DNA of 64,000 nucleotides from a virus (IMGVR_UViG_3300036398_001591:18556-82555); one strand, 5' to 3'. Shown: positions 36,615 to 42,302, counted from the stretch's first letter. Numbers and translations: made by a program. The notes: generated by a model not told the origin, from the letters alone.

Positions 36615-36830
36615 TCATTCAATCACAGCAGTGTTATTGATAATTTTCATGTTTCCTACACAGCAAATATTGCGTTTTTCCACGCCATTTTCATAAGTAA
36701 CCTCATCAAAAACAGGCACCTTTATGTTCAAGTTTCTGACGAGTATCTCATTTCCATTTTCAAAGACTCTCCAATATAGTTCAGAACTACCGTGTTTGGT
36801 ATTGAATCTTATATGGTAACGGTTTTTCAC
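36615..36830 (-). CDS. Hypothetical protein (71 aa)
   Basis: ORF overlapping the upstream stop, on the coding strand. Confidence 0.7.
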   Translation of the reverse strand: MKNRYHIRFNTKHGSSELYWRVFENGNEILVRNLNIKVPVFDEVTYENGVEKRNICCVGNMKIINNTAVIE

Positions 36831-37618
36831 TTCAACCCCATTCCCTTACGAATTTTGGTTGCTGAGATTGAATGTGTTGCGTCATCAAAAACTTCTTGCT
36901 CAATCTTATAACCAACATCTCGGCCGTAGGTTATATTAACGATGTTTGGAACGATTTGAATCTCATATTGACCTTGATATAACATATCTAGGTCACGTTT
37001 GATGAAACCCTTTACCTGTTCAATAGCAAATGGATTGCTTCCTTGCCACCCTTGACAGTCGCGTATTTGAATAACAACTTGACCCGTTTTAGCAATAGAA
37101 CGTTCAAACAATTTACGGTGTCCTTCATGCCATGGTTGCCAACGACCTAGCATTTGTACTGTCTCTTTTTGCCAATCAAAAACTGGTCTACGCCGATTGT
37201 CATATATATGTGCGGCAATGAACTCACCCCATTTTTCACCGTGCTGTTCTGTGATTCTAAAATCATATACTTCAGGAGGAATGAAGGCTTTGTTAGTGTC
37301 TTCAAAACGACCTTTGTCAATGGTGTCAACCCAAACAGTCCAATCTGCTTTAAAGTTGTTACGCATCTCAACTAAAGGTGCAACAAAGTCACATATAACA
37401 TAATCATACTCTGTCATTGAATCTGCAAGTTCTCGCATACGATGACTTTGACGGATCCGACCTTCGTGGCTAAAGTCCCAATCATTGTATTTTTTACGAA
37501 CATCGTCAGCGTTGAGCCAACCCACTTTTTTCTTTTCGTTTTGTAAATGTTCTAGTATGTGTTGTGCTAGATAAGTTTTGCCTGCACCAGGTAAACCCAT
37601 AATTAAAATCTTTTTCAT
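36827..37618 (-). CDS. Adenylylsulfate-kinase-like P-loop domain fused to an HxGH nucleotidyltransferase domain
   Basis: GLPGAGKT, NADDVR, DFSHEGRIRQ and DFVAP (CysC-like); C-terminal GRWQPWHEGH...ISATKIR. Confidence 0.8.
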   Translation of the reverse strand: MKKILIMGLPGAGKTYLAQHILEHLQNEKKKVGWLNADDVRKKYNDWDFSHEGRIRQSHRMRELADSMTEYDYVICDFVAPLVEMRNNFKADWTVWVDTIDKGRFEDTNKAFIPPEVYDFRITEQHGEKWGEFIAAHIYDNRRRPVFDWQKETVQMLGRWQPWHEGHRKLFERSIAKTGQVVIQIRDCQGWQGSNPFAIEQVKGFIKRDLDMLYQGQYEIQIVPNIVNITYGRDVGYKIEQEVFDDATHSISATKIRKGMGLK

Positions 37619-37630
37619 ATCATTTCCTTA

Positions 37631-38437
37631 TTAAATTAACTCAATCGAATCCCATCTTTTTACCCAATCTATGTAGGGTTCCTTTTCTCTATTTCCTTGC
37701 ATGTGTAGTCCGACACTTTCAAACGGTATAAGTCCTAAAACCTTTTCGTCAACTAGAATTTTATTTAAAGAAATATTTTCCAGATCGCCTTTGTTGTGTA
37801 GACCGTTCACCTGATCTATACTCATAAAGTATTCAATCCAATGCCAGTTTTTTTGCAACTGTTTTCTGTGTGTCATAAAGGTGCAAGATATATCATAGTT
37901 TTGCATCCAATATTGTTTTTTGCCTGGGTATATTAACCTAGGTGTTGACCTCAACTTATATTGTTCTTTCCAATGTGCCGGCGTATTAAAACAATAAATT
38001 AATGGTAAATGGTTTGTTTCTGCGTAAAAATCCAAAAAGACTTCGATCATTTGATATATGCCATCTTCAACGTACAAATAATCATCTTGAACCAAATATA
38101 CTAAATCACCCTCAGTTTCTTTCAACCATTCAAAACAATATTCTATTGATTCAATCATAGAACCACTATTCAGTTTTTTTAATTCAATGTTGACATTTTC
38201 ACTGTTAAATTTTTTAATAGCTCTTTCAATTAAATCGAGTGTTTCTTCTGTTGAGCCATTATCCACAACATGTATGTTATGTTGTATACCTAAATTTTCA
38301 CTTGCCGCATTTTTTATTGAATTAAAAAAAGAACTTACACATTTGTGAAAAAGTTCCTTTTTATTGTTTGTGGAATACCTATCTAAACAAGAGTTGGATG
38401 ACCTATCATACGTCTGTAAAGCATAATTTATTATCAT
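37631..38437 (-). CDS. GT-A fold glycosyltransferase-like protein
   Basis: VVDNGST and VYLVQDDYLY. Confidence 0.65.
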   Translation of the reverse strand: MIINYALQTYDRSSNSCLDRYSTNNKKELFHKCVSSFFNSIKNAASENLGIQHNIHVVDNGSTEETLDLIERAIKKFNSENVNIELKKLNSGSMIESIEYCFEWLKETEGDLVYLVQDDYLYVEDGIYQMIEVFLDFYAETNHLPLIYCFNTPAHWKEQYKLRSTPRLIYPGKKQYWMQNYDISCTFMTHRKQLQKNWHWIEYFMSIDQVNGLHNKGDLENISLNKILVDEKVLGLIPFESVGLHMQGNREKEPYIDWVKRWDSIELI

Positions 38438-38446
38438 AATATTTTT

Positions 38447-39789: not shown

Positions 39790-40398
39790 TCAACTATTCC
39801 TCTTAGCCCAATCTTCAAATCTTCCTGGTTTATGCACTCTGATAAAGATGTTAATGCTCTCTGCAACGTTTGCCATTGTATTTAAATTAATATCCATTTG
39901 TCTCGGTGCAAGCATACCATCTTGTTGTTGTTGCAACCAATAACTAACCATATTGTATGTCGTATCGTAAACTTCAAGATCAACGCCGTGATATAAACCG
40001 AATGTGCTGTCACTTAATTTTTTTGCAATAGATTCAAAGTTTACTTTTTGGTCAAACATTTTGAATGTTTTTGCAGACAATGGCCTGACATGAGTGTAAT
40101 CATCCCAATATAAATCACATCGGTGGTGTGGTACATTTATAAACCATTCTGCACCATCTTTGCTAACTCTATACATTTCTTTGATGATGTTAGTAAAAAC
40201 TTTTGGATCTTGACCAAGATGTTCTAGAACATTATCAGCAGTAATCTTATCAAAGAAGTTATCTTCATATGGCCAAGGTGTAACTTCAAAATCCAAAACT
40301 TCATCTGGATTACATTTTGATTCTACGTCTACGTTCCAATGGTCGTTTAATTTTTTAAATCCACAACCCATATTTAATTTTGTGTGTTCAGGTGTCAT
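39790..40398 (-). CDS. Class I SAM methyltransferase
   Basis: KLNMGCG, WNVD, VLEHL and EMYRV. Confidence 0.82.
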   Translation of the reverse strand: MTPEHTKLNMGCGFKKLNDHWNVDVESKCNPDEVLDFEVTPWPYEDNFFDKITADNVLEHLGQDPKVFTNIIKEMYRVSKDGAEWFINVPHHRCDLYWDDYTHVRPLSAKTFKMFDQKVNFESIAKKLSDSTFGLYHGVDLEVYDTTYNMVSYWLQQQQDGMLAPRQMDINLNTMANVAESINIFIRVHKPGRFEDWAKRNS

Positions 40399-40407
40399 AA
40401 TATTTCC

Positions 40408-41208
40408 TTAAATCCAGGCATCCCAAAAAATCTCACGGTTGTACTGGTCATACAAATCCAATCCAAGATATTCGACACAGTTAACTGTTGTTTTTTCAAG
40501 TGAGGACTTCACAGTATGCAAGTTAGGCAAACCTATTGCAAGATCATTGTACTTTTCGATTTGCTCTATTTTGGTGTAGTCGTGTTTGAATTCTGGTAAT
40601 TCAAAAAAGTCATAGATTCTTTTTGTTTGACTTTTTGGACTATTACAGAAACGATTATAGTCAATGAACAGGAATCTATCAAGGTATCCCATAGTAATAG
40701 CATCTTTAAGATTTCTATGACTTAAACCCATTGCACCATCTGGTCCGGCATAGTAGTATGCTCTTGATGCAATGTTAGAACCTTCTCGCAAATGTGCATC
40801 GACATTAGTAAAAAATAATGGATTATCTTTACGCATTCTTTCGAATGAAGTTAAAATCTCTGCTGGATTCCTAACACAAATTACCATCTTTACTTGTTTT
40901 TGTAAGACAGCTTCCAGTTGACCAATCAGTGGAACCCAACCTCTATCTTTATCAAATACAATCGGCTTGTCGATGTGTGAATAGTACCCATCAAGAACGC
41001 CGTTTAAGACACCAAGTTTTGCTTGATCGTTTCGGTATTCTTTATTAGCTTCGATACTACTCCAACTAGCATTGATTGATCCAAAAATGGATGCTAAAGA
41101 ACTTACAGATTCTCCGTGAATCTTTGGGTTTTGTTTAAGTATATTTGTTATAAGGGTTGATCCTGATCTAGGTAACCCAGAAATAAAATATAAATTGTCT
41201 TTTTTCAT
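40408..41208 (-). CDS. Sulfotransferase family protein
   Basis: GLPRSGSTL 5'-PSB loop and VRNP.EIL.SF 3'-PB motif. Confidence 0.85.
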   Translation of the reverse strand: MKKDNLYFISGLPRSGSTLITNILKQNPKIHGESVSSLASIFGSINASWSSIEANKEYRNDQAKLGVLNGVLDGYYSHIDKPIVFDKDRGWVPLIGQLEAVLQKQVKMVICVRNPAEILTSFERMRKDNPLFFTNVDAHLREGSNIASRAYYYAGPDGAMGLSHRNLKDAITMGYLDRFLFIDYNRFCNSPKSQTKRIYDFFELPEFKHDYTKIEQIEKYNDLAIGLPNLHTVKSSLEKTTVNCVEYLGLDLYDQYNREIFWDAWI

Positions 41209-41246
41209 TTTCACTCCAATAAAAAATTATGTATGAATTATATATG

Positions 41247-42302
41247 TTACTCTTTAATTGCTTCTTCTGTTGGTTTAGGAAAAAGTTTTGTTAATTCGGC
41301 AGAAACTTCTTCAAAAGTGTCTTCCCATTTTCCAAATTTTTGCTGCCTAAAAACCCTTGTCGTATCTTCATACCATGGACTATGTTCACCGCCATGGGCC
41401 CAAACGTGATATGGTAAAAGTGGAACAATAACCCAAGTTGGTTTACCCATAGCAGAAGCAATGTGTGCGATGCTTGTACATGAAGTAATAACCAAATCCA
41501 AATTCTGAATACAAGCTACAGTATCTTCCCAAGATATAATCAAGTGTTGCAGATCGGAAACCTCATCAGGTAATTCTCTCAAGTCGGTGTCTCTCTGTAA
41601 ACTATAGAACTGTATATGTTCATTATTTTTATATAGGTTGATTAATTTTTCTGCTGGGAATACGCGAAACTGTTGGTGTTCAAAAAGTGGGCTGCCACTC
41701 CAACGAATACCAATTTTTATTTGCTTTTTGGTATTTAAAATTGATTTCCAAATGTCAATACTTTCATTTTTAGGAAAAATGTATGGCTGACTAGGCAACG
41801 TTTCAAACGTATGACCAAATAACCAACTACAGCTAAATCCAGGAATCCAATAGTCGTGAAAAGTGGAACTTACTTCATCGAGTGTTATGCACTTTTGAGT
41901 GCCGGGAACTCTATTGAATATGGGATGTAGTGATTTTTCACAACAAAGAATTGCTATACCACCTCTTTTCCAAACTTCAGTGGCAAATCTGGCATAGATG
42001 ATTTGATCTCCAAAACCACACTCCATATTAAGTATGACTGTTTTTCCGGTTAAATCATCTTGGCCATTCCAAATAGGTTTACTTGTGTTGAGTTTGCCTG
42101 AACCGTATACTTTAAGTCCTCTGCCATATTCAAGGCATTGAAAGCCTTCTTGCAATTTACCTTGATTAATTAAAAACCAACCTCGGTTAAATTTTGCTCT
42201 CGGATCTGTAGGATCATTTGCTTCCATTTGCTCTGCAAGTTTCCAGCCTTCTGCAAACCTGCCACGTATCATCAAATTCAGTTGTTGATCTATCAAATGC
42301 AT
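41247..42302 (-). CDS. TPR plus GT-B (GT9-like) glycosyltransferase
   Basis: N-terminal TPR, W.G.DL.GK, ECGFGDQI..ARF, IGIRWSG and LDLVIT.CT.IAH..SAMGKP. Confidence 0.82.
   Translation of the reverse strand: MHLIDQQLNLMIRGRFAEGWKLAEQMEANDPTDPRAKFNRGWFLINQGKLQEGFQCLEYGRGLKVYGSGKLNTSKPIWNGQDDLTGKTVILNMECGFGDQIIYARFATEVWKRGGIAILCCEKSLHPIFNRVPGTQKCITLDEVSSTFHDYWIPGFSCSWLFGHTFETLPSQPYIFPKNESIDIWKSILNTKKQIKIGIRWSGSPLFEHQQFRVFPAEKLINLYKNNEHIQFYSLQRDTDLRELPDEVSDLQHLIISWEDTVACIQNLDLVITSCTSIAHIASAMGKPTWVIVPLLPYHVWAHGGEHSPWYEDTTRVFRQQKFGKWEDTFEEVSAELTKLFPKPTEEAIKE

Follow-up and report, generated by a model that had tools for sequence, protein, structure and literature searches.

The window analysed here is a 64,000-nucleotide stretch of a viral genome (IMGVR_UViG_3300036398_001591, 18556-82555) in which every large open reading frame (ORF) lies on the minus strand, and the subject of this report is an island of seven tightly spaced genes that encode two candidate glycosyltransferases, three methyltransferases, a sulfotransferase and a kinase fused to an HxGH nucleotidyltransferase (Table 1). 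On the strength of comparative genomics we give a rather better than even chance to the fusion being an enzyme that synthesises 3'-phosphoadenosine 5'-phosphosulfate (PAPS). The original prediction, made from the DNA alone, had described seven tandem genes between the fibre genes and the neck gp13 gene as a candidate self-contained virion glycosylation, sulfation and methylation system with a possible mini PAPS synthase. All seven ORFs were confirmed at their predicted coordinates, the gaps between them are at most 32 nucleotides or are replaced by overlaps, and the PHROG matches of the flanking genes agree with this placement. In the direction of transcription the order is giant fibre-like genes, the RCC1 protein, the seven genes, a 71-aa ORF, the neck gene, and further neck and tail genes. 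No convincing intrinsic terminator and no excess of sigma-70 promoters were found inside the island, which is a single operon and is probably expressed late. Identity of the neck protein is 45-49% to its counterparts in Stenotrophomonas phage DLP_6, Methylophilales phage Melnitz, Pelagibacter phage HTVC008M and Caulobacter phage Cr30, and 38-39% to those of cyanophages. The island recurs nearly verbatim in lake-water metagenomes of many separate studies, while a megablast search of the island against isolated phages, in a collection from which close records may be missing, gave no match. The source, whose record is 82.5 kb long and about 49% complete, is an uncultured freshwater T4-like myovirus.

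Table 1. Features of the seven-gene island, its fused protein and its flanks (positions counted from the first nucleotide of the window)
Feature	Position	Strand	Basis
RCC1-repeat fibre-like protein, 1137 aa, flank	42334-45747	-	phrog_4219/7220/11922
ATAAATA, T4-late-promoter-like motif	42331-42337	-	GATAAATA, 7 of 8 of TATAAATA
TPR/GT9-like (GT-B) glycosyltransferase candidate, 351 aa	41247-42302	-	Pfam sub-threshold, ESM Atlas neighbours, Bradyrhizobium homologs
PAPS-type sulfotransferase, 268 aa	40408-41214	-	Sulfotransfer_1/Sulfotransfer_3
Class I S-adenosylmethionine (SAM) methyltransferase (Methyltransf_11-like), 202 aa	39790-40398	-	PF08241, phrog_6636
Methyltransf_24/CmcI-type (sugar O-methyltransferase-like) methyltransferase	39186-39866	-	PF13578
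FkbM-family methyltransferase, 245 aa	38447-39184	-	PF05050, TIGR01444, phrog_8156
GT2 (GT-A fold) glycosyltransferase, 268 aa	37631-38437	-	PF00535
Kinase-nucleotidyltransferase fusion, 263 aa	36827-37618	-	APS_kinase and HxGH domain
Fusion N-terminal domain (aa 1-145), truncated APS-kinase-like P-loop kinase	37184-37618	-	PF01583, structure alignment
Fusion C-terminal domain (aa ~150-263), minimal HxGH (HIGH) nucleotidyltransferase	36827-37171	-	motifs, profiles, fold
71-aa ORF, no family match, probably co-transcribed	36615-36830	-	4-nt overlap with fusion stop
gp13-type neck protein/head-tail adaptor, flank	35782-36558	-	phrog_211

Domains of the tailoring enzymes were called with Pfam, NCBIfam and PHROGs. 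The sulfotransferase scored 50.5 bits with Sulfotransfer_1 (PF00685, cut-off 22) and 50.4 bits with Sulfotransfer_3 (PF13469, cut-off 27) at E ~1e-13, matched phrog_27463, gave weak matches to NoeE and, in the PDB, to TPST, and is the sole sulfotransferase in the 82.5-kb record. Its translation shows PRSGST and RNPAEILTS, which we take to be the 5'-phosphosulfate-binding (5'-PSB) loop and the 3'-phosphate-binding (3'-PB) motif of PAPS-dependent sulfotransferases. The FkbM methyltransferase (PF05050, 85.3 bits; TIGR01444, 120.5 bits) and the GT2 enzyme (Glycos_transf_2, 24.8 bits against a cut-off of 23.3) likewise passed their family cut-offs, as foreseen when a sulfotransferase, three methyltransferases including an FkbM member and a GT-A-like protein were proposed. 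The remaining two methyltransferases matched PF13578 at 63.4 bits, with weak matches to rhamnosyl O-methyltransferases, and PF08241 at 24.1 bits (phrog_6636, E 1.7e-10), respectively. For the former gene, the listed TTG start at 39866 would impose a 77-nucleotide overlap with the upstream gene, while an in-frame ATG at 39788 lies 1 nucleotide past the upstream stop and is probably the true start. The assignment of the leading gene to a tetratricopeptide repeat (TPR)-bearing GT9 family is the weakest of these calls. In Pfam its matches to GT9 (PF01075; E 0.025, 14.3 bits against a cut-off of 22) and TPR_17 (E 0.07) were sub-threshold, and no sequence match was found in the PDB. However, its neighbour clusters in the ESM Atlas carry PF01075 or TPR in 15-69% of their members, and homologs stand directly upstream of the fusion in the Bradyrhizobium loci L183 and L184 (27% identity, E 1e-28 to 1e-32), that of L183 passing the GT9 cut-off with 23.4 bits and having multiple clear TPRs.

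The N-terminal half of the fusion had been proposed to be a CysC-like kinase, and with profile hidden Markov models (HMMs) and structure comparison both run, adenosine 5'-phosphosulfate (APS) kinases came first by every method. The AlphaFold model of the whole fusion, built on 46 homologs, reached a predicted local distance difference test score (pLDDT) of 94.9. Pfam APS_kinase (PF01583) matched residues 4-91 with 45 bits, the family profile matched about 20 APS-kinase entries of the PDB at E 3e-15 and below, and the top 50 Foldseek matches of the kinase half were almost all APS kinases. VIA-align gave this half Z-scores of 18.4 with 4rfv (root-mean-square deviation, rmsd, 1.8; 129 residues aligned), 18.3 with 2yvu and 17.1 with 2gks, the next family after the APS kinases being gluconate kinase at 14.8. 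In the CysC of M. tuberculosis, Asp480 contacts the ribose 2'-OH of APS, Arg483 and Arg497 contact its phosphate and sulfate, and its adenine is stacked by Phe492 together with Phe576 from the lid (PMC4373884). The APS-contacting Asp480, Arg483, Phe492 and Arg497 align to D38, R41, F49 and R54 of the fusion; among the 46 homologs R41 is invariant and the other three are at least 90% conserved. The NCBIfam APS-kinase models scored the fusion at 35-43 bits against cut-offs of 127-139. The kinase half is thus APS-kinase-like without being a canonical CysC; 3'-OH phosphorylation of some adenosine 5'-phospho-anion is most likely still its reaction.

The nucleotidyltransferase (NT) half is a domain of about 114 residues with the motifs GRWQPWHEGH, VRD, NPF, VPNI, YGRDVGY and ISATKIR. 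Invariant in its family are G, R, Q, H, H, GR..G and the final R, and the arginine of VRD and the YGRDVGY motif bring invariant residues that are new relative to nicotinamide mononucleotide (NMN) adenylyltransferases (NMNATs). Pfam gave a weak CTP_transf_like/NMNAT match at residues 153-224. Profiles of the whole family and of the NT domain alone matched only archaeal/NadM NMNATs (E 1e-9 to 1e-11; 1e-9 to 2e-10 for 1f9a and 2qjt), with a marginal match to phosphopantetheine adenylyltransferase (PPAT, CoaD) at E ~0.04. Modelled alone, the domain reached a pLDDT of 89.8; Foldseek matched it to PPAT at E ~6e-4, and its best folds over the structure comparisons were PPAT, NMNAT and NadR. Cytidylyltransferases (Fom1, the glycerol-3-phosphate and phosphocholine enzymes, HldC) appeared among its structural matches at Z 7-9. 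The alignment to the NMNAT 1f9a (MJ0541) breaks at about position 70 and resumes at about 109, leaving about 25 residues of 1f9a without counterpart; we take this absent segment to be the nicotinamide-binding region of NMNAT. The curated NMNAT models scored the fusion at 26.8 bits against 127 (NF002243) and 25.8 against 181 (TIGR01527). Judged by these alignments, the NT domain is not a standard NMNAT either. Thus the outcome named beforehand as counting against a sulfurylase, a C-terminal domain that models as a sugar or NMN nucleotidyltransferase, was found in part, the model being of NMN/PPAT type. Stand-alone NT genes of SAR11 encode 125-147 residues. The name phosphopantetheine adenylyltransferase is attached to some family members by JGI.

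Many Pelagibacteraceae, cultured HIMB strains among them, carry the module on the chromosome, as do soil Alphaproteobacteria. Among 121 sampled Pelagibacteraceae (SAR11) genomes, whose statistics are uncorrected for phylogeny, the NT gene was present in 79 and aprA in 71, with 69 genomes having both, 10 only NT, 2 only aprA and 40 neither (odds ratio, OR, 138). NT lies within 5 kb of aprA on the same strand in 24 genomes. Sat was found in 6 of the 121, in agreement with the literature, where SAR11 is described as carrying AprBA and most of its members as lacking an ATP sulfurylase, and a search for Sat and CysD in five SAR11 genomes found none. Sulfotransfer_3 occurs in 42 genomes (SULT+), 34 of which carry NT; among the 8 that do not, 5 have CysD together with CysN-CysC. 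CysN-CysC occurs in 0 of 79 NT-positive genomes and in 6 of 42 NT-negative ones (p 0.0014). Some APS-kinase-family gene is present in 39 of the 42 SULT+ genomes (OR 25), and in 23 SULT+ genomes the truncated kinase of the module is the only one.

One SAR11 genome (G077; locus L245, 3520-9347) shows the arrangement TenA-like protein, NT of 126 aa, a 263-aa protein, AprB, AprA, a 116-aa protein and the sulfite exporter TauE, which looks from its gene content like a compact organosulfur-to-sulfate module without a recognisable sat. The 263-aa protein of this cluster has no Pfam match and is possibly AprM, and the cluster is preceded by an MFS transporter and a Cys/Met enzyme dependent on pyridoxal phosphate (PLP). 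Of five genomes in which NT is linked to aprBA, two have a sulfotransferase and also the kinase, in one case 2 kb away from the sulfotransferase, whereas the other three have neither. The simplest reading of these SAR11 patterns would be that NT interconverts sulfate and APS and that the kinase converts the APS to PAPS. TPR-sulfotransferase genes directly flank the fusion in six loci of soil Alphaproteobacteria, with the order NDP-sugar (nucleoside diphosphate-sugar) dehydratase, TPR-GT9 homolog, fusion and TPR-sulfotransferase in Bradyrhizobium. In a metagenome-assembled genome (MAG) of Bradyrhizobium (L206, 8070-13855) a 762-aa TPR-sulfotransferase and then a 1156-aa autotransporter come after the fusion, an order which hints that the TPR-bearing sulfotransferases and glycosyltransferases of this neighbourhood may act on a surface protein. 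An arylsulfotransferase-family gene adjoins the fusion in Inquilinus and in a Rhodospirillaceae genome.

The fusion is abundant in sequence collections. A word-indexed search with the fusion returned at least 8,000 candidates, the top matches at 85-93% identity, and 2,144 cluster representatives emerged from an exhaustive search with an E limit of 0.001; in IMG/VR the fusion is present at more than 590 loci. Isolated phages with the full fusion are only the Xylella/Xanthomonas/Stenotrophomonas siphophages and DLP_6. The kinase-NT order is by far the commonest architecture, with NT-kinase seen in P0197 and L121, and in SAR11 the two are separate adjacent genes. In P0229 the NT is fused to a full canonical CysC (212 bits), an architecture known from this one representative and not found in any IMG/VR locus. 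Among the fused-kinase representatives of varied architecture (P0244, P0150, P0203, P0226, P0238 and P0158), P0244 has the kinase fused to an unrelated sugar-phosphate-type NTP_transferase (PF00483) with no HxGH domain. The truncated kinase is also found fused to a DUF4118 membrane domain (with NT) or to extensions of 200-300 residues without family match; a sulfotransferase domain was considered for the kinase-plus-extension proteins P0203, P0226, P0238 and P0150 and was rejected for lack of Pfam or BLAST support. The fusion-bearing MAG contigs L164, L174, L166 and L217 (Melainabacteria, Saccharibacteria, Synechococcus CPC35) resemble phage contigs binned with cellular genomes, and L217 also holds neck genes.

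Linkage in phages was assessed with an iterative HMM seeded with the sulfotransferase of the window. Because sensitivity was limited to this one type, other sulfotransferase families being out of its reach, the resulting counts are lower bounds. At least 55 of the 160 viral loci contain a sulfotransferase-like ORF, which in 37 cases lies no more than 1.5 kb from the fusion; for loci with at least 8 kb of sequence on both sides the figure is 7 of 29. The linkage in phages is frequent, tight when present, and not obligate. Occurrence of the fusion independently of sulfotransferases, likewise named beforehand as counting against the prediction, was therefore found in part, at the other 105 loci and in five complete jumbo-phage genomes. 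A number of loci without a sulfotransferase (L004-L034, some phages exceeding 300 kb) have a 7-deazaguanine-type set around the fusion, including a separate 161-aa cytidylyltransferase (examples: L018:9517-10002, L018:11454-11936, L032:8861-9541 and L005:3391-4239). In Xylella phage Sano, a 195-aa protein encoded two genes upstream of the fusion has a sub-threshold Sulfotransfer_4 match, and an annotated cysteine dioxygenase lies 3 kb upstream.

We propose that the HxGH domain would adenylylate sulfate (ATP + sulfate to APS + pyrophosphate), with the invariant arginines of GRxQ, VRD and YGRD as candidates for the anion site, and that the fused kinase would phosphorylate the 3'-OH of APS to give the PAPS consumed by the sulfotransferase. 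Such a sulfurylase activity would have evolved from the NMNAT/PPAT branch of the superfamily and not from Sat or CysDN. All enzymes of the island are predicted to be soluble, and the two glycosyltransferases would build or extend a short glycan, to be tailored by the three SAM methyltransferases and the PAPS-type sulfotransferase. We infer a short O-methylated, sulfated glycan because the island combines GT9-like and GT2 enzymes with three methyltransferases, and because of the weak best matches to sugar O-methyltransferases and to NoeE. Carrying its own PAPS supply would make sense for a phage whose host, as is the case for most SAR11, is unable to activate sulfate. To the explanation as a whole, a late island operon that builds a methylated, sulfated glycan with PAPS from the fusion, we give a modestly better than even chance. 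The broader reading, in which NT is a third class of ATP sulfurylase that serves as sulfurylase of the SAR11 AprBA sulfite-oxidation route and as PAPS source of most SAR11, and in which the fusion is the smallest known PAPS synthase, spread by freshwater and marine phages for sulfation in hosts unable to activate sulfate and here serving a sulfated, methylated fibre glycan, we regard as evenly balanced. The idea that the fusion supplies PAPS is thus retained on grounds other than those first given: the aprBA synteny, the complementarity with CysDN-C, the sulfotransferase adjacency and the APS-binding residues speak for it, while the rationale of a Sat-like domain fails. Similarly, "self-contained" applies to sulfate activation only and does not hold overall, given that no nucleotide-sugar genes are present in the island.

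Several observations weigh against sulfate activation by the fusion. In the kinase half the LDGDN motif reads LNADD. D87 and D89 of the corresponding LDGD in human PAPSS1 are each essential, the D87A variant being inactive (PMC8528679), and their equivalents in the fusion are Asn36 and Asp38; the family consensus at this site is NADxVR, with DGD kept in some members. The lid of about 30 residues that carries Arg559, Lys562 and Phe576 in M. tuberculosis is down to about 15, and the PF01583 match spans only model positions 5-94 of 152. The NT profiles found nothing significant in the sulfurylase portions of 2gks, 1x6v, 1i2d, 3cr8 or 1v47 (phmmer scored that of 2gks at -3.7 bits), and the domain, at its ~114 residues, lacks the N-terminal PUA-like domain of Sat (~350-400 aa). 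Its best fold matches, PPAT 4nah (Z 10.4; rmsd 3.2, 110 residues aligned, 11% identity), the MJ0541 NMNAT (10.1) and NadM (10.0), stand above the ATP sulfurylases, for which Z was 8.6 with Thermus 1v47 (111 aligned), 6.1-6.4 with 1x6v, 1j70, 2gks and 4maf, and 5.5 with 4dnx. By sequence, then, the NT domain is not a homolog of Sat; its nearest relatives by sequence and predicted fold are archaeal/NadM NMNAT and PPAT, and the Sat-like domain that had been predicted survives only at the level of the HxGH superfamily. Phage gene content adds further points. In 105 of the 160 viral loci no sulfotransferase was detectable nearby, and none scored above cut-off in five complete jumbo-phage genomes (197-525 kb) that carry the fusion. 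A PAPS reductase as alternative consumer of PAPS in phages lacking a sulfotransferase was considered and dropped, there being no PF01507 in those five genomes. Many such loci place the fusion among GTP cyclohydrolase I (FolE), QueD-like PTPS and radical-SAM genes, and in Sano-like siphophages a NADAR (NAD/ADP-ribose-associated) protein stands beside it, scoring 92 bits and lying directly upstream in Xylella phage Sano (L001, 7963-9732). In SAR11, NT occurs without Sulfotransfer_3 in 45 genomes, and the idea that NT is complementary to Sat was rejected, as 5 of the 6 Sat-positive genomes also carry NT and complementarity exists only with CysDN-C. Finally, because no correction for phylogeny was applied to the SAR11 statistics, synteny and mutual exclusion outweigh the p-values there.

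One alternative is an NMNAT/PPAT-like domain that adenylylates a cofactor precursor (NMN, its acid form NaMN, 4'-phosphopantetheine, flavin mononucleotide or another), with the kinase acting in the same pathway, for example on a 3'-hydroxyl in the manner of dephospho-CoA kinase or on a nucleoside in that of NadR. The outcome would be a boost of NAD, CoA or FAD or a new 3'-phospho-adenylyl compound, and the sulfotransferase would be nearby merely by chance, in a region that is hypervariable. The proximity of NT in sequence to NadM and archaeal NMNATs, its best folds (PPAT, NMNAT, NadR), the NADAR neighbour in Sano, the PPAT names given by JGI and the frequency of the fusion in phages without detectable sulfotransferase or PAPS reductase all fit this alternative. 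However, NT has no counterpart of the ~25 residues within 1f9a ~70-109, its NCBIfam NMNAT score stays at 26.8 against 127, and the kinase retains both arginines that bind the sulfate of APS. Moreover, cofactor synthesis leaves the aprBA synteny, the exclusion of CysDN-C and the recurrent sulfotransferase adjacency unexplained, and we consider it improbable. Much more improbable is a kinase for a small alcohol or sugar paired with an HxGH domain that makes an activated donor (CDP-X or ADP-X, on the models of phosphocholine, glycerol-phosphate or heptose) for the island transferases, as the PF00483 fusion of P0244, the cytidylyltransferases among the structural matches and the GT9-like (heptosyltransferase family) enzyme heading the island might suggest, since the kinase has kept the Phe that stacks on adenine and the Arg and Asp residues with which APS kinases bind the nucleotide, not a small-molecule site, since it tracks sulfotransferases across SAR11, and since stand-alone NT sits beside aprBA without the kinase.

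Under PAPS synthesis by the fusion, the acceptor of the sulfated glycan can be considered separately. None of the seven island proteins has a hydrophobic segment (highest Kyte-Doolittle value 1.28 in a 19-residue window), and neither a flippase, a polymerase, a ligase nor a membrane protein is encoded in the island. Homologs of the TPR-GT9 candidate are accompanied by an RCC1 fibre gene in 7 of the 7 viral loci that have them. Virion glycosylation by phage-encoded enzymes has a precedent in mycobacteriophages (Freeman et al. 2023, as cited in PMC12619734). Because of these features, together with the late-type motif and the TPR region, we lean tentatively, at a little short of an even chance, to a protein of the virion, for which the RCC1 fibre encoded next to the island is a candidate. 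The leading competitor for the target, which is compatible with PAPS synthesis, is the host envelope, whose lipopolysaccharide (LPS) O-chain or capsule would be remodelled during infection so as to block superinfection or the adsorption of progeny. In pelagimyophages the host recognition cluster is a hypervariable island of LPS-type enzymes between fibre and neck genes, for which modification of the host O-chain was argued (PMC7029224), and by its ORF map and neck protein the island of the window has this same layout. FkbM, CmcI-type and NoeE-like enzymes are moreover typical of LPS and Nod factor tailoring. By contrast, the missing membrane functions, the apparent tie of expression to a late-type motif among structural genes, the protein-binding TPR region of a lead glycosyltransferase that in related phages is always found with an RCC1 fibre gene, the autotransporter beside the bacterial counterpart and the mycobacteriophage precedent all argue against the envelope, which is nevertheless a serious competitor, at well below an even chance. 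That the target is neither a virion protein nor the host envelope is, in our judgement, unlikelier still.

The late-type ATAAATA motif predicted to head the island at about 42331 is present there (Table 1). T4-type late promoters have TATAAATA some 10 nucleotides ahead of the transcription start of late genes. It overlaps the TAA stop codon of the fibre gene, the first ATG of the island follows 29 nucleotides downstream, and a GGAG ribosome-binding site lies in between. With 15 copies against 19.7 expected, the window shows no enrichment of the motif, which speaks against its being a late promoter, although 13 of the 15 copies are on the coding strand (binomial p 0.007). Copies stand before three gene starts, those of the first island gene, the neck gene (36587-36593, minus strand) and the gene at 46044 (46082-46088, minus strand), the latter two at 29-38 nucleotides before the starts; by their sequence and spacing these two are consistent with T4-type late promoters. 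A functional late promoter with this 7-of-8 motif ahead of the island is plausible on the same grounds. As to the neighbouring genes, homologs of the 71-aa ORF (47-59% identity) adjoin the fusion in 7 of 80 viral loci. Some 20 RCC1-like repeats, in which a SSPVQIGSSSWTAV unit recurs, make up the 1137-aa RCC1 protein, whose gene is the last in an upstream series of giant genes for fibre-like proteins (921-1455 aa).

To our knowledge, Sat and CysDN are the two enzyme families by which sulfate is activated. If there is indeed a third sulfurylase family, of very small size, sulfur metabolism would have to be annotated differently in organisms that rank among the most abundant on Earth: SAR11 genomes have sulfotransferases without a visible PAPS source and AprBA mostly without a sulfurylase, and the NT gene bears on both. 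The island would then also be a sulfation route encoded in full by a virus, and it could lead to sulfated or methylated glycans on virions or on infected cells, with a bearing on host recognition. A PAPS synthase of 263 residues could further serve as a compact enzyme for PAPS regeneration.

Among known systems, the two-step sulfate activation within one chain of PAPSS1/2 (1x6v), the Aquifex aeolicus protein 2gks and the Penicillium enzyme 1i2d is the closest in the kinase, which is homologous (Z 17-18) and keeps the APS residues, and human PAPSS has the same kinase-then-sulfurylase order as proposed for the fusion. However, the fusion has 263 residues against ~550-630 for PAPS synthases and Sat-CysC proteins, and its NT of 114 residues lacks the Sat N-terminal domain and any PF01747-type match. 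Its lid is truncated, it has LNADD for LDGDN, and it is known here from sequence and a model. NadM and the archaeal NMNATs (1f9a, 1ej2, 2qjt, 2qjo) share with NT the GRFQPxHxGH-type and ISxTxIR-type motifs, the NPF turn and the fold (Z ~10), whereas NT lacks ~25 residues between the fourth strand and the C-terminal motif and keeps company with APS and sulfation genes instead of NAD genes. The supply logic is that of NodP/NodQ with NodH or NoeE in rhizobia and of RaxP/RaxQ with RaxST in Xanthomonas, where a private sulfurylase and APS kinase stand beside a sulfotransferase acting on a molecule that is secreted or displayed at the surface. The enzymes there are canonical CysD/CysN/CysC homologs, whereas the island is viral and has a smaller candidate sulfurylase family. 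In the sat-aprBA clusters of sulfite oxidation and sulfate reduction, the usual place of sat is the one taken by stand-alone NT next to aprM-like, aprB, aprA and tauE genes in 24 SAR11 genomes. Nevertheless, that NT gene is NMNAT-like and encodes ~126 aa, not a Sat of 350-400 aa, and the phage context would be biosynthetic (PAPS) and not dissimilatory. The pelagimyophage host recognition cluster occupies the same site and is likewise rich in glycan enzymes, and HTVC008M and Melnitz have neck proteins with 45-47% identity to that of the window; GT8-type enzymes are reported there, and sulfotransferase and sulfate each have 0 mentions (PMC7029224). Mycobacteriophages have glycosyltransferases among their structural genes and decorated virion proteins (Freeman et al. 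2023, cited in PMC12619734); sulfation and methylation are not reported there, hosts and enzyme families differ, and for the present phage a virion target is only suggested by the gene content. From these comparisons, the island probably joins a dedicated PAPS supply to a glycan sulfotransferase according to a known logic, with what is probably a new class of sulfate-activating domain.

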